A stretch of 64,000 bases of DNA from Eledone cirrhosa (Eukaryota): contig OZ024744.1 of NCBI GenBank assembly GCA_964016885.1, positions 90,830,001 through 90,894,000 of the forward strand, written 5' to 3'. How positions within the stretch are numbered: position 1 is the stretch's first letter; each line of letters begins with the position of its first letter. Of this stretch, positions 4,337 to 57,900 are shown in pieces. The position numbers and the translations under genes were made by a program. A model generated the notes under the pieces. The model had not been told where the DNA came from. It worked only from the letters and a program-made list of their open reading frames with translations, and did no database searches.

Positions 4337-4510
4337 AGGATAGTAGACGTGTTTCGTATCGCTCTGTGATTTGGATTTTTACCTGCTATTTTTGTGAGTG
4401 GATTTTTTTGAATTCTTTTGTATAATTAACTGTAACCCCTAGTCTGGGACTCTAGACGTCGGGTAAATATATTTTCACCCCTTTTGGGGTGAAAAATAAA
4501 TATTTCAGAA

Positions 4511-6277
4511 ATGTTTATCGATATCGTTGATAACGATATCGTCGAAAACGATATCGCCATATTGGAAGCGAACGCCACGCCGACCAAAAAAACAAGTGGG
4601 AAAGAGGGAACAACAGTTCAAACTGTTGAACAACCCCTCCTCTCCAATGAAAAAAAGAATTTCAATTCAAATGAAAAAATTAATTTTCAAGAAAAAAATA
4701 ACACCACAAATAAGGAAACCAACAACATTACAACAACAAACAAAGACAAAATTTCTTTTGCCCAAACACTCAGGAGAGCCACGGAATACAAAGCCATTGA
4801 CATCACGAACGCCAAGGAAAATTTGCTAGAGGCTAGAAAATACGTATCTTTTGGGGAGGATGGTTCTTTTACGATCAACTCCCCAGAAGAAGTGCGTGAA
4901 CAGATTTACAAGAATACCGTAAGCTACAGAACCATAACCAACGAAACGAGAAAGCCAGCGCAATTGACCGAAAGTCAAATCGAGCTGGTTCTGAAAGAAA
5001 TTAAAAATGACATACTCTTTATTCAAAGAGGAAAGCTGTATGCCAGCATTATGGTCCGAATGAAGGACGAAATGCTGGCTCAGAAATATTCGGTGGCACC
5101 TATAGTGTCACCACAATACACCTTCTTCCCCACATATAAAGGAAGAAGAACACAAAGGATAAGAATGTGGAGCCCTACGCCAGAAATTAACATCTGGTCC
5201 GTCCTAACAGGATTTACCGACCTAGATAAGGACATACTAATTTCAGCAGGGGAGTCCACCAGTGGACTGTTCGGGGGGAAAAGTCTGGAGGTTCTCTTAC
5301 AGATGACACCTGAGAGAATCTCCGGAATACCCGACCGAGTGCTACTGGATGGGCGAACCTACATAAATATCACAGTGGAAGGCAGGAGACCCTCATGTTA
5401 CCACTGCGCTGGCAGAGGTCACCTGAGGACGGCCTGCCCTCTACTAACAACAAAAAAACCACTGCTGCAAACACCACAACAACAACAAAAACAACCAGCA
5501 CCACCATCACAAAAACAACAAAATACACTACCATCACCACCAGAACAACAAAAACCAACAACACCACCACCACCACCACCACCACAACAACAACAACAAC
5601 AACATCAACAACAGCTCAAGAAAACAACCCAAAACACGGTCCCACCCAGCCCCACCCCACAGAACACAAATACAAAAACAGTTCATACACAACCCGGAGA
5701 TATACCCCTCCCCTCCAATACGGAAGAGGAGCTCATATCGTCGGAAGACGAGGGGGCTCCCTTCCAAAAAGTAAAAAGAAAAAAACGTACACACACCACA
5801 CAAACAAAAATAACCCCACCTGACAACACAACACAGACAATAAAACGCAAACTCACTCAACAACAACAAGCAAAAACAAACACGACAACACAAAAACTCT
5901 ACACATACATAAACAAAAACAATGAAAACCTAACTTTAAAAGTAGAAACCAACCCTTCGATACAAACCGAAGGGCCGAATTTCGTAACGGCAATGGGGCT
6001 CCCTAACCTGAAAATGGTGAAGATCCCACTTGACATTTTCAAAACTTTAAAAGACATTTACCCTGAGGACGTGGGCCCACCCTGCACCAGGCCACTCAAC
6101 CGCGTCCTCCTGAAAGGTTTTCCCCTCCCCTCCTCAAACACCCACACAACTCCAAAGATCCCAACCCCTCCACACACTAATACCCCCACACCACCACAAA
6201 CCACCACCCCACCCATCAACCCCTCCACCAGCCCCATGGAAACTGAGCGGCCCGAACCCCGGGACGCAGAGAGGTAA
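4511..6277 (+). CDS. LINE ORF1 (gag-like nucleic-acid-binding protein, 588 aa)
   Basis: Uninterrupted ORF with a CCHC zinc knuckle CYHCAGRGHLRTAC preceded by ITVEGRRPS; P/Q/T low-complexity C-terminal half with a basic KVKRKKR patch. Confidence 0.88.
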   Translation: MFIDIVDNDIVENDIAILEANATPTKKTSGKEGTTVQTVEQPLLSNEKKNFNSNEKINFQEKNNTTNKETNNITTTNKDKISFAQTLRRATEYKAIDITNAKENLLEARKYVSFGEDGSFTINSPEEVREQIYKNTVSYRTITNETRKPAQLTESQIELVLKEIKNDILFIQRGKLYASIMVRMKDEMLAQKYSVAPIVSPQYTFFPTYKGRRTQRIRMWSPTPEINIWSVLTGFTDLDKDILISAGESTSGLFGGKSLEVLLQMTPERISGIPDRVLLDGRTYINITVEGRRPSCYHCAGRGHLRTACPLLTTKKPLLQTPQQQQKQPAPPSQKQQNTLPSPPEQQKPTTPPPPPPPQQQQQQHQQQLKKTTQNTVPPSPTPQNTNTKTVHTQPGDIPLPSNTEEELISSEDEGAPFQKVKRKKRTHTTQTKITPPDNTTQTIKRKLTQQQQAKTNTTTQKLYTYINKNNENLTLKVETNPSIQTEGPNFVTAMGLPNLKMVKIPLDIFKTLKDIYPEDVGPPCTRPLNRVLLKGFPLPSSNTHTTPKIPTPPHTNTPTPPQTTTPPINPSTSPMETERPEPRDAER

Positions 6278-6300
6278 GTGCCTCTTTCTTTGCCACCAAC

Positions 6301-9300
6301 ATGGCTGTCTTAAGAGTAGGTTGTCTAAATGCGCGTGGCCTGGGCTCACCTTGGAAGCAAGCTAAACTTCTAAGTGACCTCAGGTCACAATGTGTAAATG
6401 TGATGGTTATTTGCGAGGCTCGGATCAGCAGCATGCGACAGCTAACCCCCACCTTTGATGACTTTGAGATGCACGCATCTCTCTGTCAGCCTGGAGGTGG
6501 GGGTGGGGTTGTCGTTCTGCTGCAAAAACACCTGGGTCTCGCTACACAGACGGTACACTTGGACCCGGAGGGTCGACTCGTGGTTCTGGACCTTGGCAAT
6601 GGCGAAGGCGAAGCTTTTAGGCTTGTCGCCGTATACGCCCCTTTTGGGGCAATGCGGTCGGACTTCTTCCATCGTCTGGAGACTTTTCTAGGGACGTCCC
6701 GCTCCTTGCTTTTAGTGGGGGACTGGAATGGTATCCTAGATGCACGTTGGGACTATGTAGGGGCATGTCCCGATAGAGGGGGGTGTAACAGCCTTAAGGG
6801 GTTAATCGGCCGATTCGACCTGGCCGATAGATACCGACTAGATTTTCCGACTGTACCAACCTGGACCTGGTCAAATAACAGTGGTCAATCTAGATCGTAC
6901 CTAGATAGGTTCTTAGTTAGAATTAAGGATAGGGACTTTTTAAGTTGTCCAGAAATGCTCATGGTGGGCTATTCAGATCACAAGTTAGTGACCTGCGTAG
7001 TCGACCTTGATAGAACGCATAGGCAGGGGCCCGGTTACTGGAAGCTCAACTTGTCCTTACCGGCAAGTAGAGCTTACAGGGACCGGATTAGAACCTTAGT
7101 TAAGGAGCAGTTGACGGGCGCCATCGTCAACAACAGGTGGTGGGGCTCTCTAAAAAGAGAGATTAGAGTAGTTTCAATAGGAGTTAGTAAGGAGTTAGCC
7201 TCAGATAGAAATAGGAAGGAAAGGGAGTTGGTAGTTAATGTTGAAGAGGCAATGAGAAGCGGCAACGTGGCCAGAGTGCAAGCGTCGAGAACGGTCTTGA
7301 ACCAGTTCTTCGACGCGAAACACGAAGGCTGCGTTGTCCGAAGCAAAATACGTGCTCTGGGAAACGAGGGGACCAAAGCTGTTAGCTGGGCCCGCGTGAC
7401 AGAAGCGAAAAGTGGGATTAAATCCACTATCCGGTCTTTGCGAGACCAGGATGGACGGCTGATCCTTGAACCTAAGCAAATGTGCGAAGCCTTTCAAAGG
7501 CACTTTGCCCAATTGTTCGGGAGGGGCGGGGAGCCGGTTGGAGATGTGGATTTCGGTCCATACCTCGACGGCCTGCCGCGTCTTTCGGACAGGGAGGCGA
7601 GGTCCTGCGACGGGCCGATCTCAGCGGCTGAAATAGGGGACGTGCTGAGCCTATGCGGCAAACGCAAATCTCCAGGACTCGATGGTCTGCCCTACGAACT
7701 ATATATTAATATGCCGGACTTGTTCCCCGATCTCCTCGAGGCGGTCTACTGCAACTGGCAACAGAACGGGAGAATTCCCTGTTCTGTGACCAAGGGCGTA
7801 GTCTCGCTAGTGAGGAAGGACGAGAACAAGGGGGATGACATTAGTAATTTTAGGCCCATAACTCTGCTAAATGCAGAGTTAAAGATTTTGGCGAAGGTGT
7901 TAGCGAAGAGGTTGGCGCTTGTCGTGGGGGGCCTGGTGGGAGATGCGCAGACATGCGCTATCCCGTCCAGGTCCATCCACGACAACCTCCACCTCATGCG
8001 ATACATCATAGAGAGGGTTGGGAACGAACCCGGCTTTGGTGGGGCCCTGATAAATTTAGATCAGTCTAAAGCGTTCGATAGGGTGGACCATGGTTACCTG
8101 GATGCGGTGCTAGCGGCGGCTGGGTTCGGACCCGTTTTCAGGGGCTGGATCACTGCCATGCACAGCAGCCGCATCTGCTCTAGAGTCAAGGTGAACGGCT
8201 ACCTTTCGGAGCCGTTCGAAATCACCCGCTCCATCCGACAGGGGTGCCCTCTCTCCTCCCTTCTGTATGTATTGACTCTCGAACCATTACTGCGGAAGTT
8301 GGAGTTGTTGCAGGGCATCCCTTTGGAACCGGGATTGCGCAAAGCGGTGTCGGCCTACGCCGATGACGTAACAGTAATGGTGTCGACCGCCTCGGAAATC
8401 GAGGCAATCGGCACCTTACTAGAGGAGTACGAAAGGTTGACAGGGGCTAAGCTGAACCGGGACAAGTCAGTCGCTTTGCAACTCGGCGAGTGGAGGGGCA
8501 AAGCGATGTCGTGCGACGGTATCGTCGGACGGTGGACGGAGGGCCCGGTGAAGTTGCTTGGGGTCTGGTTCGGACCGGACCTCCAGGTGGAGAAAAACTG
8601 GGGTGAGGTGACGAATAGGGTGTTTGCACTGACCCAGAAGTGGGCCGAGTGCAAACTATCCCTAAAAGGTCGGGCGGAGGTGGCGAACGCTTACATAGCG
8701 TCCGTCATCTATTACCGCTTGACTGTCGTGCCTTGCCCGGGTGAGATCCTCGCCAAAATGGAGCGCGCCCTCTTTTATTTCCTTTGGAAGAAGAGGTCTC
8801 CTCTAGTGAGGAGATCCATCTGCTGTCAACACCCTTTGAAAGGAGGGCTGGGGATGCCGTGGCTAAAAATGCATAAACACGCATTGAGGCTAAGGCACCT
8901 CCACGTATTCCTCACCGGTCAACCGGTGTGGGCCCCGTTTGTGAGGCGAGCCTTCCCGAGGCTCGTCTCGCTCACCGAGCTGCAGTCCTGGGTGAAGCAA
9001 AGACCGAGAAAACTGGGCGACTGGCACACCGAGTGTGCCCAGGCGCTCACGGCTCTCTGGCAGGCGGACCCGGCTATCGACGGAGACTCCACCTCGTCAT
9101 TCTATAGAGGGCTGGTGGTTAGCGGGTGCGACGACGCCCTCGGAGAAGCCCTAGGCATGGAGGAGGACGAACTGGCCAGTCTATTCGGTAGGACTTTCGG
9201 CCCGGGACCTATGGACAACTTCCAGAAGTCCTTGGCCTGGCAGTGCTACCGAGGGGCTCTGCCCGTTCGGGATAAGCTCTACAGACACGGGCTCCCGGGT

Positions 9301-9738
9301 AGGGACCCCTCGAAAAAGATCTGTCCCAGATGCGTGCGCGACGAGGAAACCGTCGCGCACGCATTGGTGCACTGCCCGGGCGTTGCCGATCTGTGGGGCT
9401 ATGTTGAACAACTGCTGTCACGGGTGGGACCAATTAGGTTGACCACCGAGTCCATTGTAACGATCAAGCCGCCTCCCCCCTTCAAAAATGAAGGAGAGGC
9501 GGTCTTCCTCTGTGTAATAGCCATGGTAAAAGAGGCTATATGGTGGACGCGTCTGAAAGGGCTGAGGTCGGACACCTTTCTCTCCGGCCAACAACTGGTC
9601 CTTTTTTTCCGATACCATTTCGGAAGAAGGATCAGGATGGAGAGAGAGGTGCTCCACTCCAGCAAGTTTTATGAAAGGTGGGTGAAAGTTGCGAGAATGG
9701 CCCGTGTGAATGGGCCTTCTCTCTACCTCAGCCTGTAG
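6301..9738 (+). CDS. LINE ORF2: APE endonuclease, reverse transcriptase and C-terminal zinc finger (1145 aa)
   Basis: APE motifs LNARGL, VYAP, GDWN, SYLDRF, SDH; RT motifs SPGLDG, FRPITLLN, LDQSKAFDRV, RQGCPLS, YADD, LLGV; C-terminal CPRC-x8-H-x4-C (CPRCVRDEETVAHALVHC); no stops or frameshifts. Confidence 0.96.
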   Translation: MAVLRVGCLNARGLGSPWKQAKLLSDLRSQCVNVMVICEARISSMRQLTPTFDDFEMHASLCQPGGGGGVVVLLQKHLGLATQTVHLDPEGRLVVLDLGNGEGEAFRLVAVYAPFGAMRSDFFHRLETFLGTSRSLLLVGDWNGILDARWDYVGACPDRGGCNSLKGLIGRFDLADRYRLDFPTVPTWTWSNNSGQSRSYLDRFLVRIKDRDFLSCPEMLMVGYSDHKLVTCVVDLDRTHRQGPGYWKLNLSLPASRAYRDRIRTLVKEQLTGAIVNNRWWGSLKREIRVVSIGVSKELASDRNRKERELVVNVEEAMRSGNVARVQASRTVLNQFFDAKHEGCVVRSKIRALGNEGTKAVSWARVTEAKSGIKSTIRSLRDQDGRLILEPKQMCEAFQRHFAQLFGRGGEPVGDVDFGPYLDGLPRLSDREARSCDGPISAAEIGDVLSLCGKRKSPGLDGLPYELYINMPDLFPDLLEAVYCNWQQNGRIPCSVTKGVVSLVRKDENKGDDISNFRPITLLNAELKILAKVLAKRLALVVGGLVGDAQTCAIPSRSIHDNLHLMRYIIERVGNEPGFGGALINLDQSKAFDRVDHGYLDAVLAAAGFGPVFRGWITAMHSSRICSRVKVNGYLSEPFEITRSIRQGCPLSSLLYVLTLEPLLRKLELLQGIPLEPGLRKAVSAYADDVTVMVSTASEIEAIGTLLEEYERLTGAKLNRDKSVALQLGEWRGKAMSCDGIVGRWTEGPVKLLGVWFGPDLQVEKNWGEVTNRVFALTQKWAECKLSLKGRAEVANAYIASVIYYRLTVVPCPGEILAKMERALFYFLWKKRSPLVRRSICCQHPLKGGLGMPWLKMHKHALRLRHLHVFLTGQPVWAPFVRRAFPRLVSLTELQSWVKQRPRKLGDWHTECAQALTALWQADPAIDGDSTSSFYRGLVVSGCDDALGEALGMEEDELASLFGRTFGPGPMDNFQKSLAWQCYRGALPVRDKLYRHGLPGRDPSKKICPRCVRDEETVAHALVHCPGVADLWGYVEQLLSRVGPIRLTTESIVTIKPPPPFKNEGEAVFLCVIAMVKEAIWWTRLKGLRSDTFLSGQQLVLFFRYHFGRRIRMEREVLHSSKFYERWVKVARMARVNGPSLYLSL

Positions 9739-20905: not shown

Positions 20906-20940
<35 letters not shown>

Positions 20941-20942
<2 letters not shown>

Positions 20943-21131
20943 GAAGGAAATGTGGTAAGGAACCAGATGGACCATAATGCACCAAAGTACTCAATACTTA
21001 GGGTAGTAGAGTGGGTAATAGGAATGAGTAGGACCCCGACAGCTGAGCTCAAACCGTTTTGACGGCTAATTCTGGACTCCAGAATTAGCCGTCGAAATGG
21101 CTTGAGCTCAGCCGTCGGGGTCCTACTCGTT

Positions 21132-21137
<6 letters not shown>
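20941..21137. mobile_element. Penelope-like terminal fragment ending in a 119-bp hairpin (21018-21136); related piece at 35880-35990
   Basis: Flanked by (AT)n; contains the 3' half of a hammerhead (stem II-GAAA-stem III-GTC) on both arms. Confidence 0.7.
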
Positions 21138-21176
<39 letters not shown>

Positions 21177-21391
21177 GTTAAAAATGTACATCCACATATG
21201 TATACTGAAATACTAGTATGCATATGAATACACACACGTATACATATGTAGATGTACCGAGTTTTTCACTGGTCACTTTACTGTGAGTGTCCAGCTATTC
21301 TGTATGTAAACACACAGACAAACCGGTTTTTAGAGTCATACTGGTTTTTGAGGAAACACCTTTCCTCTATTCTCCAGAAAGCCAGGCAAGG

Positions 21392-21436
21392 AATATTGAA
21401 CTAGTTTCGATGTTGTTACATCTCATCAGCAATATT
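21392..21436 (-). ncRNA. Type I hammerhead ribozyme (R1 left arm)
   Basis: Minus strand AATATTG-CTGATGA-GATGT AACA ACATC-GAAA-CTAGT-T-CAATATT. Confidence 0.92.
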
Positions 21437-22012
21437 TACCTATCTTCCGGCCTCTCTAGAGAATCGTAAAAGCACATATCGTTATATGCTTTTTCTATGA
21501 AAATTAGTAGTGGGCAGACTAATTTGCATAGAGCGTGAGTACGTACCGGTTCAACGGAGACGATAAAAACAAATAACGAAACGAAATTAAATTTCGTTTC
21601 ATTTGTAACTCACTTTTGTATGACTGACGCTTAAACAATTAAGTTAAAAATCTACATCCACATATGTATACTGAAATACTAGTATGCATATGAATACACA
21701 CACGTATACATATGTAGATGTACCGAGTTTTTCACTGGTCACTTTGTGTGTGTATTCATATGCATACTAGTATTTCAGTATACATATGTGGATGTACATT
21801 TTTAACTTAATTGTTTAAGCGTCAGTCATACAAAAGTGAGTTACAAATGAAACGAAATTTAATTTCGTTTCGTTATTTGTTTTTATCGTCTCCGTTGAAC
21901 CGGTATGTACTCACGCTCTATGCAAATTAGTCTGCCCACTACTAATTTTCATAGAAAAAGCATATAACGATATGTGCTTTTACGATTCTCTAGAGAGGCC
22001 GGAAGATAGGTA

Positions 22013-22057
22013 AATATTGCTGATGAGATGTAACAACATCGAAACTAGTTCAATATT
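22013..22057 (+). ncRNA. Type I hammerhead ribozyme (R1 right arm)
   Basis: AATATTG-CTGATGA-GATGT AACA ACATC-GAAA-CTAGT-T-CAATATT; perfect core, ACTAGT palindromic stem III, GUU site. Confidence 0.92.
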
Positions 22058-22393
22058 CCTTGCCTGGCTTTCTGGAGAATAGAGGAAAGGTGTTTCCTCA
22101 AAAACCAGTATGACTCTAAAAACCGGTTTGTCTGTGTGTTTACATACAGAATAGCTGGACACTCACAGTAAAGTGACCAGTGAAAAACTCGGTACATCTA
22201 CATATGTATACGTGTGTGTATTCATATGCATACTAGTATTTCAGTATACATATGTGGATGTACATTTTTAACTTAATTGTTTAAGCGTCAGTCATACAAA
22301 AGTGAGTTACAAATGAAACGAAATTTAATTTCGTTTCGTTATTTGTTTTTATATATATATATATATTTGCAAGCAGGGAAAAGCGGACGTAAA

Positions 22394-26055: not shown

Positions 26056-26648
26056 ATGTGTGAGTACATGTATACTCAAATATAAGCAGAAAAATATGTG
26101 AAACCCCATCTCCAAAAAATCAATGGTAAAATGGTGGGGTCGTGGCTTATACATACCATTTAAACAATGTATTGATTTGCTGCCTCGCTTATAAATGGGG
26201 TTTAGATTTTTGCACATTACTCAGACATAAAATAAAGGGATTGCTTATATATGCTATCTAAACAATGTGTTGATTAGCTACCTCAGTTTATAAATTTTCA
26301 CCTATTTCTCAGACATAAAATAGCTGGGGAGGGATCATCTTATGTTCAAGTATATATATGTTATATTTTCTTGTCTATTGTATATTGTTTTAAGATGATA
26401 ATAAATCAATTCTAGAAATTACATAACCATGAAACATAACTAATTCCTGTTTCCACATATTTCTTTCTTTCTTTCTTTCATATGCTCCAATATTTTTCTA
26501 TACTTGATATATAATTGACTATATCGTTCATATATCATTAATGTTTTATTCTTGTGACATATAGAAATATATATTTTAGCTTGGTCTTAACTTTATAGAT
26601 TTGTATATAGTAAAAATCTGAGTTGAGGCAATGTTAAGCTGAGTAGTA

Positions 26649-27692
26649 TTAACTCTTTCATGGCCACATTTCTAATGAAATACACTCAGTGTGTATCACT
26701 GGTATTACTGTTAATGGTCCATTAGGAATTAATGATTTTATTAGCCCTTTCATGGCCACATTTCTAATGAAATACATTCTATTTTAATTTAATTAATGAA
26801 GAATTTTGAGGTATTTACTGAAATTATTAATTATTTCATTAGTAAGATAGTAATTTAATGTAAGGTTCTTTTATAAAATAATAATAATAATAAAAATAAT
26901 GAAATTATTGTGTACCGTGCTCAGGTGCACTACAACTCATCAAAGGTGCATGTATAGTACATAGAATAATGTTCAAATGTCAAGAAAATAAACAGTGTAC
27001 GATTCATGAAATACATGTGTGCATGTGTATGGACAGGGGAGGGGGGGGGCACATCAGGTGCAGTGTTGGCAAATCTCAGGAAGTATGGAAGATTTTAATT
27101 TAAATTGTAAACCTCTAAAATGGGTGGTTTTATTTCATAGAACCATAGCTGGTTTTAGTTGGGTTGGTAACAAAGATAGTAACTTAGGTTGGAAGATTTT
27201 TATTTAAATTGGAAAACGTTAAAATGGGTGACTGTTGTGCGAGAGTAGAACGCCCTCCTTGCGAGAATGGGCTTGACCACTACATATAAATAGTAGTGGC
27301 CTGAGTAAGTGGGAAAGTTGGTACTAGTTCCACAGATCGAGTGTTGATTGTCAAAGTTGGTGTTCAAGTTTACAGTTCGAGTTAGTGTATTGGATTGTTG
27401 GTTCTTAAAAGATTGTTGTTCCGTTACGTATGGTTATTGTCGTTTGTTCGATTATATTGTTATTACACTGTTGCAGTGTATTCATAAGTGTATTCATAAG
27501 GACATAACGGTGACTATATTCCATAGAACCAGAGCTGGTTTTAGCCAGATTGTTAACAAAGACAGTAATTTAATATAAGGTTCTTATATAAAATTATGTT
27601 GGAAGATTTTAATGTAAATTGGAAAGCTTTAAAATGGGTGACTTAATTTCATAGAACCAGAGCTGGTTTTGACCGGGTTGGTAACTAAAGGA
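26649..27692 (+). mobile_element. TTAA-ended MITE with internal subrepeats of about 120 bp and nested insertions (LINE-like 3' end with (TTA)n tail at about 26878-27090; solo LTR)
   Basis: Repeated AAAATGGGTG...CATAGAACCAGAGCTGGTTTT...AACAAAGATAG unit; homologous to 47700-48215 (minus). Confidence 0.65.
27233..27509 (+). mobile_element. Solo LTR (277 bp)
   Basis: Ends TGTTGTG...CATAACG; 5-bp TSD GTGAC (27228-27232 and 27510-27514); TATAAATA inside; the empty site AAAATGGGTGAC is visible in the sister subrepeat at about 27631. Confidence 0.8.
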
Positions 27693-47348: not shown

Positions 47349-47699
47349 AGCTCCTCACTTTCCATTCCAGCTTTAAAGAAAAAAAAATCTATATTTTTCT
47401 TATCACAACGAATCCTTTCAATGTGCTTTTTTTTTTTATTTTGGTAGGTTTCTTGCCTTTCATACTTACGGGGTCGATGAAATAAAGCACCAGTAATGCA
47501 CTGGGATAATTGCTGGCCTTGTGCCAAAAGTAGAAACAATTATTAATGAAAGAGCGGTGGATTGGCTGTATTGGTAGAGTATCAGACAATATGCTTTGTA
47601 GCATAGAGTTGCATCCTTTTATGTTCCGAGTTCAAACCCCTTCAAGGTTAGCTTTGTCTTTCATCCTTATGAGGTCAATAAAATAAAGCACCAGTAAGG

Positions 47700-48215
47700 C
47701 TAAACTGGCTCTGGTTCTTTGAAATAAAACCACCCATTCTAAAGGTTTCCTAATTTAAATTAAAATCTCCCAACTTTTTTATCTAAGAACCTTAGATTAA
47801 GTTACTATCTTTGTTACCAACCCAGCCAAAACTAGCTCTGGAAATAAAACCCACTCATTTTAAAGGTTTCCATTTTAAATTAACCAGTTCTTGTCCTATG
47901 AAATAAAGCCATCCATTTTAAAGGTTTCCAATTTAAATTAAAATCTTCCATCATAATTTTATATAAGAACCTTACATTAAGTTACTTTGTTACCAACCCT
48001 GCCAAAACCAGCACTGGTTCTTTGAAATAAAACACCTATATTAAAGGTTTCCAATTTAAATAAAAATCTTCAAACATAATTTTATAAAAGAACCTTACAT
48101 TAAATTACTATCTTACTAATGAGATAATTAATAATTTCAGTAAATACCTCAAAATTCTTCATTAATTAATTAAAATAGAATGTATTTCATTAGAAATGTG
48201 ACCATGAAAGAGTTA
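47700..48215 (-). mobile_element. Inverted copy of the TTAA-ended MITE with subrepeats of about 120 bp
   Basis: Reverse complement of 26649-27692 without the nested inserts. Confidence 0.7.
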
Positions 48216-48288
48216 ATACTACTCAGCTTAACATTGCCTCAACTCAGGTTTTTACTATATACAAAACTATATCTGACAGGAAGGTATA

Positions 48289-48329
48289 CGATGCTGACGA
48301 TAGCTAATAAGCTTGAAACTAGTTCATTG
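48289..48329 (+). ncRNA. Type I hammerhead ribozyme (R2 copy 1)
   Basis: CGATG-CTGACGA-TAGCT AATA AGCTT-GAAA-CTAGT-T-CATTG; the first pair of stem II is a T-T mismatch. Confidence 0.78.
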
Positions 48330-48710
48330 TTCCTTTGTCAGTGTTGAACAAAAGGGTGGTTGCCGAACACTGTATGGCTTAATTCGAGCTGTTTGTTTAC
48401 AAACAAACCGAACATTATAATAAATGTTCGGTGAATCCAAACGTACATATATATATATGTGTGTATGTATATATATATACATACTACTGTACATCTGTAT
48501 TCATATATGTATGTACGTATACATACTTATATTTAAGTAACAGCCGTACTAAGAGTGAGAAATTAAATTTCGTTTCATTTTTTCCATATATCGTTTTCGG
48601 TGCGCCCGGCTGATTAACTCACTCGATATGCAAATTAGGCTGCTCAGTCATTAATATGCATAAGGAAAGTATATACTTTGAGACGTTCAATCATCTGGCA
48701 GGAAGGTATA

Positions 48711-48751
48711 CGATGCTGACGATAGCTAATAAGCTTGAAACTAGTACAGCG
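48711..48751 (+). ncRNA. Type I hammerhead ribozyme (R2 copy 2)
   Basis: CGATG-CTGACGA-TAGCT AATA AGCTT-GAAA-CTAGT-A-CAGCG. Confidence 0.75.
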
Positions 48752-49787
48752 TTCCTTTATCAGTGTTGAACAAATGAGCAACGATGGTTGCTAGACACTG
48801 TACGGCTTAATTCGGGATGTTTGTTTACAAACAAACCGAACATTATAATAAATGTTCGGTGAATCCATACGTACATATATATATATGTACATGTATGTAT
48901 ATATATATACATACTACTGTACGTCTGTATACATATATGTATGTACGTGTACATACTTATATTTAAGTATCAGCCGTACTAAGAGTGAGAAATGAAATTT
49001 CATTTCTTTCTTTTCGTTTTCTCCTAGTTTCATATATGTGATCAATAATGGTTCAGTTATTTTTTATTAACTATATTAGTTGAGAGCTTTTTGTATTGAG
49101 GTGGTGAAAATCACTTTATTTTCACACACTGTAAACAACTGCCAAAACTTTGGCCAGTATGACCTTCCTCTTTTGAGATAGGTCATCTGACAACACAGGC
49201 AGGGTTACTACAATGGCGAGAATGCTTCTATTGTCAGATTGAACTTTGGAACAAAGCCTGCCGGTTCCATCGTGTACACATGTATTGCATGGACATTATG
49301 CAACTTGTTATATAACTTCCAGGAGTTCCAGAAACCTATCTTATATTTTTATTGATTATATCGATTTTAATCAATATGAGATGGTCCAGGTACATTTTGC
49401 ACTTTTTTGTATTTATCATTGTTGGTTGTGATATATGTATGGCCAGTACCAAAGGTAATTTTTCTTGGTGTCACACTTTTTAACTGTTGTGTTTACTCTT
49501 GACAGTAATGTATTAACATACTGCTCTATTGAGTGCTTTGTGATTACCTCAGACAACTCCATTAGTACTTGCTATATGGCAGCTACAACTTCAATTCATA
49601 CCTAATATAATATTATGAGGACGTTTTTCGTATTCGTCTTATTCGGGAAACCTCTGGTAATGAGGTAATTATATTGTATTGTTTATTATACATTAAATTT
49701 TGCTCTGGTACTTACATAGAGCACTCTTCACTCCTATGACTTCTTCATTTTTCAACAGAAACTTCAATACTTATATATATATATATA

Positions 49788-50839
49788 AAACAGAACCCAG
49801 ATCCCCTCAGGGAAATGGCCTTGCTCAGTATGTAGGAAAGGTGTAGGTAGGAACTCCATTCTTTGCCCCAAATGCAAACAATGGGTACACAAGAGATGTA
49901 GCGGGATCTCAGGAAGCTTAATTAAGAATGTAGGATTCACATGCAGCAGCTGTGCTGAAACAGCAAGCAAACAGCCACAGGAAACAAGTACCACCAATCT
50001 CTGGGAGGGCCCTGTAGAAACAGTAGACAGCTTCTGCTACCTAGGTGACCGAATTAGCAACGGAGGTGGGTGCTCAGAAAGTACAATAACTAGGGTAAGA
50101 ACGGGATGGAAGAAGTTTAGGGAACTACTACCACTGTTAGCTGCAAAAGGCTTCTCCCTCAGAATGAAAGGCAGACTGTATGATGCGTGTATCCGAACAG
50201 CGATGTTGCATGGTAGTGAGACCTGGGCGCTGAAGGTGGAAGACTTACGTAGATTAGAGAGAAACGAAGCCTGCATGCTCCGATGGATGTGTAACAGTAA
50301 TATACGTGAACGACAAAGCATAAATGAATTGAGAGAGAGACTGAGCATAAGAGGAATCAAATGCTGCGTGCAGGAGAGGCGGTTACGCTGGTATGGACAT
50401 GTGATGCGTATGACTTGGGATGAGGTGATAAAAACCGACCTTACCCAACTACACCTCTCAAAGTCAATGACACACGACCGTGACTTCTGGCGTCACGCAG
50501 TAATACAGGGTACCCGACCTCCCATGGGTACATGCTGAAGCATATAAACAATATGCCCCCCCCCCCCCACCGCAAGGTGGTCGTGGAGGTGCCACGGCAA
50601 AAAAGCACCCAGCCCACACTGTAAAGTGGACGTGTAGGCGCCACGAAAAAGCACCCAGCACTCACTGTAAATGAGGTTGGTGTTAGGAAGGGCATCCAGC
50701 TGTAGAAATCAAGCCAGATCAGTTCCTGTATGAGCAAGGCATGGTCAGCCGACCAGACACTGCCCACAACAGGACAACCCGTCTAACCCATGCTAGCGTG
50801 GAAGAACGGACGTAAAACGGTGATGATGATGATGATGAT
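49788..50839 (+). mobile_element. 5'-truncated RTE copy E (second subfamily) with an intact PHD-like finger
   Basis: WPCSVCRKGVGRNSILCPKCKQWVHKRC...FTCSSC, F.YLGD, LHGSETW, (GAT)n tail. Confidence 0.93.
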
Positions 50840-54904: not shown

Positions 54905-57900
54905 GCAAGGACTCCTCCTCTTTATTTCGGCCGCGGATGGCCAACATAACCCCATCTCCCTCACCCCTCCCTGCGCCCCACCGTTCCCACCCACCAAACA
55001 CAATCCAAAACTTCAGAGTTGTTACCATGAATGTAGGCACCTTAAAAGGTCGCTTTAACGAGGTTGTAGAAATGCTTAAACGTAAGGAGGTTGGTGTTTG
55101 CTGTATCCAAGAGACCAGGTGGAGGGGTGGGTCTGCTAGATTCATTGTGGGTAAAAAACGATGCTATAAGCTTTTCTGGGTGGGAAATGACAATGGGCTG
55201 GGTGGAGTAGGAATCATGCTAGCAGAAAAATAGGCAGATAAGATAATAGACGTAAATAGAGTGAACGACAGAATAATTAAAATAAGACTTGTCCTAAATA
55301 GAACTACTGTGACAATAATATCTGTGTACACACCCCAATCCGGACTGCCTGGCGTTATAAAAGACAGATTCTATGAGTCGTTAATGCTCACTACCTCCCA
55401 AATAACCAACAGTGACTACATAATTATTGCTGCCGACCTAAATGGTCACGTTGGACAACATTGTGACAGCTATGACGGAATCCATGAAGGCTATGGGTTT
55501 GGTACTAGAAATGAGGAAGGCTCCAGAATGCTGGAATTCTGTGACGCAAATAACCTAACTAACTGTAACAGTAACTTCAAAAAACGAGACAATCACTTGA
55601 TCACCTATAGATCAGGGGAACACGCCAGTCAGATAGATTATATCCTTACCAGAAGACGTGATAGAGTGTCTGTTGTAAACACTAAATCCCTCCCCCATGA
55701 AGAATGCACCTCCCAACATACTCATAGTTAGCGACCTCATAGTCAGGACAAGACATACTCGACAATAGAGGAGGACTATTCTCAGGAGAAAAATTTGGAA
55801 GCTAAAGGACCTCACAGCCAGTAATAAATTTAAAAGCATATTACTTGATGCTTTTGACAGTAAGGAAGAGCAATTAGAGTTGTACAATATAGAGGAACAG
55901 TGGGAATTCCTGAAAGCTAACCTGCTGAAGGCGACAGATGAAGTCTGTGGCTGCAGCAGACCTATAGGCAGGAGGAGAGTAACGTAGTGGTGGAACAGTA
56001 AGGTGGAGGAGTCAATCAAGGCCAAAAAGCAGGCTTGGAAAGTATGGCGGGATGGGGGAAGTAGAGAAGACTATCAAGTGGCCAGGAGGGAAACTAGGAG
56101 ACAAGTGTACTTCGCAAGAAGGGAAGCAGAGGAAAGAAAGCTCAAGCATGTACTACAACACGAGGACCAAAAACGTGAGATGTTCAGGATTGCTAGGCAA
56201 TGTGTCAAGGAAAACCGTGATATTGTCGGGGAGAAGTGTGTCCTTAATGATGATGGTGTACTTGCCATCACTGACGCTGATAAGAAGGTAGCTTGGAAGT
56301 GTCACTACGAAAGGCTACTAAATAAATGAGGAGAATAAATGGGAGAAAGACAGTCTCCCCCACATAGATCCAATAGAGGGACCAGCAGTGCAAGTTGAAG
56401 GTAGTATAATAAGTAAGGAAATCAAAGATATGAAGACTGGCAAGGCGGCTGGGGCTTTGGAAATAGTTGCTGAGATGCTGAAAGAATCTGGAACGGTGGG
56501 ACACACTCTGGTCACCCGGATAGTAAACCAAGTCATACAGAATGGGGTCGTACCAAAGGACTGGCGTAGCAGCATCATCATTAACTGCTACAAGGGTAAA
56601 GGAGATGCCCTAGATAGGGGAAACTATAGAGGCATTAAATTAATTGACCAGGTCATGAAGGTCACAGAAAAAGTAATAGCGCAACTAATCAGCGAGTGAA
56701 TTGATCTGGATGAAATGCAGTTCGGGTTTGTGTCAGGTAAAAGTACCACAGACGCTCTTTTCATTGTACAACTACAGGAGAAGTACCAAGCTAAAAGTAA
56801 ACCCCTATACTTAGCTTTTGTTGACTTGGAGAAAGCCTTTGACAGAGTCCCACGCCCCATTATCTGGTGGTCTCTCAGAAAACTAGGTGTAGATGAATGG
56901 CTTGTGAGCGCTGTACAAGCCATGTATAAAGAAACAGTCAGCAAGGTTAGAATTAAGAACGAATTTAGTGAAGAGTTTAGCGTAAAAGTTGGTGTTCATC
57001 AGGGCTCCGTCCTTAGCCCCCTGCTATTTATTATTGCCCTTCAAGCTATAACAGAGGAGTTCAAGACCGGCTGCCCATGGGAACTCCTATACGCTGATGA
57101 TCTAACGCTCATAGCTGAATCAATGGCTGAACTAGAGAAGAAATTCCAAACATGGAAGCATGGCCTAGAATCAAAAGGCCTTAAAATTAACCTGTCTAAG
57201 ACTAAAGTTCTAGTATGTAGGAAGGAAAATAGGGCACTTGTCCCATCTGGGAAATGGCCATACTCAGTGTGTAGGAAAGGAGTAGGCAGAAACTCCATTT
57301 TGTGCCCCAAATGCAAAGTATGGGTGCATAAAAGATGTAGTGGGATCACAGGTAAGCTAACTCAGAATATAGATTTTATATGTGGCCGGTGCTCAGGTGC
57401 AATAAGTAGCAGCAAGTGCCCACAGAATACTAGCTCTTACAACTGCGCAGAGGGCTCTATAGAAATAGTGGACAGCTTCCGTTACCTGGGTGACAAAATC
57501 AGCAGTGGGGGAGGGTGCTCTGAAAGTACAGTAGCTAGAGTCAGAACGGGATGGAAAAAGTTCGGAGAGCTAAACCACTATTGGCCGCTAAAGGGTTCTC
57601 ACTAAAAATGAAAGGCAGGCTGTATGATGTCTGCATACGAACAGCAATGTTACATGGCAGTGAGACATGGGCATTGTGTGCAGAGGATATACACAGACTG
57701 GAGAGGAACGAAGCTTGCATGCTCCGTTGGATGTGTAATAGTAATATACGTGAACGGCAAAGCATAAATGAACTAAGCAAGAAATTAGGAATAAGAGGGA
57801 TCAGATGCTGTTTACTCGAGAGAAGACTACGTTGGTATGGTCACGTGATGCGCATGAAATACGACAGCTCTATAAAAAAGTGCAGGGCGGTCAAAATAGA

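Follow-up and report, generated by a model that had tools for sequence, protein, structure and literature searches.

A tandem array at positions 48271-49018 of the analysed stretch of Eledone cirrhosa DNA (the window, 64,000 nt in all) is, with high probability, an old, single-armed mosaic of two subfamilies of a ~420-435-nt non-coding hammerhead repeat, likely copied in trans by the reverse transcriptase/GIY-YIG protein of a Penelope-like element (PLE) and poorly suited, by prediction, to self-cleavage. Judged from its sequence, the family behind the array is a real type of non-LTR retrozyme with a clear Penelope footprint, and it is new among the known non-LTR retrozymes. Its short, low-GC tandem units carry one type I hammerhead each and are dispersed as monomers to multimers, as in retrozymes. 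Searched exactly against the 3.0-Gb genome, a 35-nt core pattern matches 10,353 times and its reversed control 0 times; 411 family copies share the U17 of unit 1, and 55 carry the 43-nt haplotype of unit 2 with its A·G mismatch. The first 100 core matches listed correspond to 81 loci (67 single, 9 tandem with 420-453 nt between matches, and 5 inverted only), a classification by exact core matches that misses partners with a mutation. None of the titles and abstract openings listed for hammerheads and retrozymes in connection with octopus or Penelope describes the family, which supplements may list.

The array consists of 1.75 units on the + strand, unit 1 at 48271-48692 and unit 2 at 48693 to ~49018, which differ by 24 substitutions and by indels of 6 and 2 nt (48271-48584 aligned to 48693-49014). 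A preliminary description had placed a two-hammerhead array at 48271-49020, with two cores, an ACTAGT palindrome in each and predicted cuts 422 nt apart on the same strand. The cores, the palindromes and the spacing were borne out: CTGACGA starts at 48294 and 48716, and the + strand has T at position 17 of the first core (48324) and A at that of the second (48746), the predicted cuts after them lying 422 nt apart. The tandem hammerheads thus stand, and the extent is corrected to 1.75 units, unit 2 (48693-49018) stopping at the fixed long 3′ end of the family. The body of unit 1 (48271-48591) is 5′-truncated at the foot of the hammerhead. Hammerhead 1 (type I, 48273-48341; core 48294-48324) has a helix I of 6 bp with one G·U, a helix II of U·U plus 4 bp, a palindromic helix III/loop that includes palindrome 1 (48318-48323), and a predicted cut after 48324 (GUU). 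It is followed by two adjacent hairpins found by folding (48390-48432), an AT-rich self-complementary tract (48441-48535) which ends at the short 3′ end of the family (48535 in unit 1, ~48965 in unit 2), and a "tail" of ~56 nt (48536-48591) that 3′-end mapping places between the short and the long end. The spacer (48592-48692) holds ATGCAAAT at 48628-48635, presumably an octamer-like motif, and a TATA-like palindrome at 48666-48679; the block is a putative internal promoter, a role suggested by its motifs, and the octamer-like motif is common to a sister hammerhead family in the window (21166-22360). Hammerhead 2 (type I, 48695-48763) contains palindrome 2 (48740-48745), and its cut is predicted to follow 48746 (GUA). 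Two mismatches affect its helix I, A·G in the third pair (48713/48749) and C·A in the distal part. The predicted 422-nt monomer (48325-48746, + strand) extends from one cut site to the other.

No ORF of at least 120 aa was found in 47400-49780, and the lack of an RT + GIY-YIG ORF in this region excludes an autonomous PLE as the identity of the array. A plant LTR retrozyme was likewise rejected, given the type I topology and the absence of a target duplication beyond a 5-nt TATAT. A search for a tRNA head in the unit gave none. Next to the 5′ end of the array (47700-48270) lies a high-copy, AT-rich repeat of no relation to it, whose internal units measure ~120 nt and which recurs on the minus strand at 26594-26900.

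A strict type I descriptor scanned over the window returned four matches, the two array motifs and those at 21429 and 22020 within the sister element, and none in the control of 100 block-shuffled windows. Both array motifs contain CUGANGA, GAAA, UH and three helices with helix I open, H17 being U at site 1 and A at site 2. In an alignment of 10 hand-picked hammerheads, double-sided changes occur in 7 of 23 pairs, a covariation score reached by 0 of 500 shuffles, most of the double changes coming from the one sister-family row of the alignment. Pair 1.3 of helix I varies between A-U, U·G and G·U among subfamilies, and compensatory changes keep helices I and II both between subfamilies and with respect to the sister family. 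Rfam at gathering score gave no match in the whole window, and its 75 matches in 48200-49100 at E up to 10 included no hammerhead family; folded in isolation, the two 75-nt hammerheads are no more stable than shuffles (z -1.25 and -0.49). The identification of the hammerheads therefore rests on core and covariation. The T-T opposition noticed earlier at the base of helix II, and feared to prevent cleavage, is real and family-wide: the usual G10.1-C11.1 pair is replaced by U·U across the family. As a killer of cleavage it was rejected, for the axolotl HHR_Amex2 carries U·U and cleaves, with 22% cleavage as a monomer and better cleavage as a dimer in the data available from that report (PMC7229834). 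The U·U is a lesser worry than the U17 of site 1 or the A·G mismatch of site 2.

Pairing of the two ACTAGT palindromes between the cores, proposed earlier as a dimeric hammerhead, is sound in geometry, as a nested double hammerhead with a crosswise helix I, and of low computed probability: the duplex of the palindromes is worth -4.8 kcal/mol, and the inter-unit helix III reaches P ~0.08 when 48271-48800 is folded, a construct in which the crosswise helix I serving site 1 has P ~0.7; two longer constructs give 0 for this helix III. Because of the A·G mismatch, helix I of site 2 is close to absent (P 0.04 or less in either topology). In energies computed without tertiary contacts, the double hammerhead costs 8.3 kcal/mol above the ensemble and two single hammerheads cost 9.7, and 6 of 7 mismatch-free pairs elsewhere need 4.5-6.6 kcal/mol as singles. 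Hammerheads with GUU sites cleave more slowly. GUU is nonetheless listed among the cleavable NUH sites in the available part of one source (PMC3138052), and the passages at hand of another (PMC4209133) propose dimers as the working form of metazoan type I motifs whose helix III is short and palindromic. In what is accessible of the Xenopus study, one of nine retrozyme dimers was cleaved in vitro (10.64898/2026.07.22.740005). Modelled as a circle, the 422-nt monomer would be highly paired (z -5.3), with a full helix I restored at the junction.

Activity of the locus itself, as a retrozyme that double-cleaves as a dimeric hammerhead into a 422-nt circle, would be in keeping with the intact state of both catalytic cores, with the 1.4 kcal/mol by which the double hammerhead is cheaper than two singles, with the probable crosswise helix I of site 1, and with the listing of GUU as cleavable together with the copy numbers of U17 and of the A·G haplotype. 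The reading is unlikely: the mismatch weakens helix I of site 2 in both topologies, nearly all mismatch-free pairs elsewhere fold at far lower cost as singles, and the octamer/TATA-like block sits downstream of ribozyme 1, between the ribozymes, with no promoter-like motif upstream of ribozyme 1. If this block is a promoter, as in newt satellite 2 (cited in PMC2220036), both sites would occur only in read-through RNA. The preliminary description had assigned the array to the right class at the level of the family, and had missed the copy number and the insertion marks of Penelope type; release of the 422-nt monomer by this locus in vivo would be an improbable event, given that site 1 has U17, that helix I of site 2 contains an A·G mismatch and that no promoter-like motif precedes ribozyme 1. 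A visible 422-nt product from the locus in vitro is predicted to be doubtful, with a better prospect than release in vivo.

The differences between the units had earlier been taken to mean that the array either is older than the element called R1 or was built from two templates, and both hold. Painted against two genomic subfamilies, unit 1 shows A states to 48412 and mostly B from 48433, the spacer and unit 2 show B states to 48817 except at 48713, and unit 2 is mostly A from 48834. Half of the substitutions (12/24) fall on sites that separate the subfamilies, so two templates contributed; the remaining ones amount to ~4%, as against 1% between the arms of the element at 21166-22283, which was taken as R1. 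Units of one array generally differ less, by a mean of 0.9% of shared sites against 3.7% between loci, the pairs being non-independent. Among 82 tandem pairs, 48 have 0-1 shared-site differences and 12 have at least 4, some of the latter being separate neighbouring insertions; the pair at 48271-49018 differs at 10 of 249 shared sites. The mosaic may equally have arisen by template switching, by unequal exchange or by gene conversion. The subfamily switches map in or beside the hairpins at 48390-48432, as does the junction of a fusion between a PLE and a retrozyme discussed below. An assembly artefact would agree with the fact that no contig in four public DNA runs (one study) spans the array; it is highly improbable, as a 325-nt contig is identical to the 3′ junction (48986-49310) in three runs of one sample and mosaic arrays exist elsewhere, as do other mosaic lineages.

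Longer arrays were also seen. At locus L156 (G000:C1:19314051-19318769), five units alternate as ABAB, units 2 and 4 being identical over 346 compared sites. An origin from a dimer circle was rejected here, for the alternating differences are private mutations, and duplication at the DNA level of a diverged dimer seems to fit the sequence better. At G000:C3:72264282-72270383, four same-strand family matches over ~6 kb possibly form one long array. Scars of A-to-I editing were not seen in non-microsatellite parts, the rare variants there having no A>G strand bias (99 vs 81, p 0.41).

The evidence for copying by a PLE comes from the insertion marks of the family. Alignment assigned 197 3′ ends at 142 loci (L021, L029, L031, L171, L177, L183, L185 and L199 were left out as repeats of other loci). 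Two positions account for 152 of the 197 ends, 75 being short (48535-equivalent) and 77 long (48591-equivalent), and TA runs adjoin 137 of 184 short or long ends. The spacing of ~56 nt between the two fixed ends is uncertain by a few bases because both run into AT. Two-strand loci combine one long and one short end in 45 of 50 cases, and the same pattern recurs in 9 of the 11 two-strand loci among 40 consecutive loci of one contig. Copies of the family have variable 5′ ends produced by truncation, partial tandems and frequent head-to-head inverted arms. By analogy with described elements, the (TA)n targets, the 5′ truncation, the head-to-head arms and the two 3′ ends are the insertion pattern of PLEs. 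For PLEs, the text available describes partial tandems, an inverted 5′-truncated copy and a tail at one end (PMC8557442); for the anole PLE, the accessible sections describe a one-sided tail that arises from cDNA starts at two internal sites, AT-rich targets, and a cleavage that is dispensable for insertion in vitro (PMC11167929). Against mobilisation of this array by a PLE stands the locus itself, the 3′ flank of unit 2 lacking a (TA)n run and any target duplication other than the TATAT, and the second, inverted arm being absent at 48271-49018. A pile-up of 5′ ends was observed near the base of helix I, where a start site may lie, an observation confounded by the choice of loci.

The sister hammerhead family is represented in the window by a two-armed element in (TA)n (21166-22360) with one short and one long end. 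Its arms are 99% identical, and its hammerheads have the canonical G-C at the base of helix II together with U17. It is homologous to the family of the array over the whole unit, with 286 identical columns as compared with the 454 nt of the latter. Close by, at 20940-21135, lies an element of ~200 nt with an internal palindrome and (TA)n flanks; similar sequence adjoins the PLE copies L251, L202 and L206.

Which RNA served as template is constrained by the sequence around the cleavage site. All of 29 copies chosen only on post-cut sequence, which represent 24 distinct arrays and come from the 40 scored among 431 candidates, extend upstream past the site. A cleaved linear monomer copied in one pass was therefore rejected, which leaves as templates a circle, an uncut multimer or linear pieces between which the enzyme jumped. 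Within an array the units tend to belong to one subfamily, as expected from a circle and equally from a homogeneous multimer. The family may be a non-autonomous PLE that carries the hammerhead as a passenger, reverse transcription proceeding on uncut multimers or by template jumps with no circle involved, a real possibility that falls somewhat short of being probable. The insertion marks all fit such copying equally well, and the U17 subfamily reached its 411 copies. The compensatory changes in helices I and II speak against a passenger role by implying selection on the fold, as do the circles that coral, mussel and axolotl retrozymes yield in the portion of the report available (PMC7229834). 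Moreover, 5′-truncated linear copying should lose the promoter in each round, and tandems would need to be regenerated. From the conserved fold, cleavage would have been of importance to the master lineages; the in vitro result on the anole element, as an analogy, points the opposite way on the need for cleavage.

Under the favoured reading of a hammerhead family copied in trans by a PLE, transcription would start at the internal promoter of one unit and proceed into the units that follow. Monomers, which a host ligase may close into circles, would then be excised by hammerheads, probably in the double form. A PLE protein would nick (TA)n DNA, and cDNA would start at one of the two internal sites and copy more than one unit. 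Copying from an uncut multimer or by template jumps appears somewhat probable, and copying from a circle is a strong possibility just short of that. Switches between RNAs, or later gene conversion, would give rise to mosaics such as the array at 48271-49018. Tentatively, and with the balance of probability clearly against it, the family could be regarded as a record of PLE reverse transcriptase circling on RNA circles made by hammerheads, with two starts and with switches onto other circles or PLE mRNA. If this were true, switches next to a hairpin hot spot would have placed a B-type tract of nearly unit length in an A-type copy to give the array, and the helper with which to reconstitute the step from circle to genome would be the PLE family of loci L121 and L250.

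Candidate helpers are present in the genome. At 30 loci of an abundant young RT + GIY-YIG family, 14 ends are short and 8 long, and 8 loci lack an anchor; the ends mostly lie before (TA)n, the tail measures ~41 nt, and locus L224 has one end of each kind. At one of these 30 loci, L250, the 3′ end is formed by the last 142 nt of the retrozyme family, with its short end, joined at a 3-nt microhomology in a junction that occurs once in the genome. This copy (L250/L251, G000:C2:375834050-375837400, minus strand) spans the whole PLE coding region, its 3′ end being replaced by the retrozyme family. A single cDNA that started on retrozyme RNA and went on along PLE RNA could account for it, as could a neighbouring insertion plus a deletion. 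A terminal repeat homologous to the family was sought in 100 GIY-YIG/PLE loci (four sets, one locus counted twice, drawn from more than 10,000 first-look candidates) and none was found in this small part of the candidates, a result that may count against PLE mobilisation. The repeat might alternatively be a solo or partial pseudo-LTR of an undiscovered autonomous PLE, its tandem made at the DNA level. Xenopus retrozymes are homologous to pLTRs in the available text (10.64898/2026.07.22.740005), and DNA-level duplication does occur, as the five units of L156 with their alternating private mutations indicate. Such an origin is improbable: at the mapped loci each unit either continues into a spacer and the preceding unit or is cut short by truncation or inversion, the only same-strand PLE fusion among the mapped loci is L250, and new 3′ ends in (TA)n on both arms mark retrotransposition of the short unit. 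Several autonomous RT + GIY-YIG families (L111, L085, L114 and L121) have (TA)n ends and hammerhead-like motifs, some of them with a U3-A8 core, some with U·U at helix II and one with U17; the L121 family comprises many near-identical copies with frames of ~900 aa.

Among known systems, the closest are the metazoan non-LTR retrozymes of coral, mussel, axolotl and newt satellite 2. In the parts of the description available (Cervera and de la Pena 2020, PMC7229834) they share with the present family a non-coding, low-GC tandem with one type I hammerhead per unit, thousands of copies and a predicted circle that is highly paired. The palindromic helix III is found in axolotl HHR_Amex1 and the U·U in HHR_Amex2. 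The unit of the present family is slightly longer than the 170-400 nt given for metazoan retrozymes. The two internal 3′ ends, the head-to-head arms and the (TA)n targets do not appear in the accessible descriptions of metazoan retrozymes (PMC7229834). Li, Clavereau and Pollet 2026 (10.64898/2026.07.22.740005) treat non-LTR retrozymes, in the text available, as non-autonomous derivatives of PLEs, which are the same class and the same kind of helper as considered here. The array corresponds in spirit to their requirement of two consecutive complete units, and the fold cut-off of 5 kcal/mol is passed. In that study, as far as its accessible text goes, the link to PLEs consists of co-occurrence and pLTR homology and tandems are seen as local amplification, whereas here the link is the insertion footprint.

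EN+ PLEs resemble the family in their partial tandems, inverted 5′-truncated copy and one-sided tail (PMC8557442, PMC11167929) as well as in AT-rich or microsatellite targets and a hammerhead upstream of the 3′ end (PMC8557442, PMC11167929, PMC4209133), to the extent that these sources are available. In contrast to them, the family is without an ORF and has a tail of ~56 nt rather than the 30-40 bp reported in those portions; its hammerhead possesses a distally extended helix I of the full 6 bp, while that of EN+ PLEs is described there as a minimal form. The non-autonomous elements of Chlamys, for example MRC1, are comparable as passengers of PLEs with multicopy head-to-tail insertions. They differ in resembling their helper at the 3′ end, and canonical hammerheads are reported to be absent from that clade (PMC8557442).

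The return of retrozymes to DNA through a PLE protein that copies a circle has been proposed, and in the accessible text of the papers concerned it is not demonstrated. The occurrence in one genome of a PLE two-start footprint at high counts and of young PLEs with long frames renders this step testable in vitro. The array at 48271-49018 is a poor substrate for such a test, its value lying in the example it gives of subfamily mosaicism; the mismatch-free GUA-type arrays L145, L154 and L157 are better test objects. The window also contains other RT elements, at 4493-9738, 49789-50538 and 56700-57605 and in related repeats at 36-62 kb. They are of two kinds, a two-ORF LINE (APE endonuclease, RT and zf-RVT) and fragments of a PHD-finger RT element.
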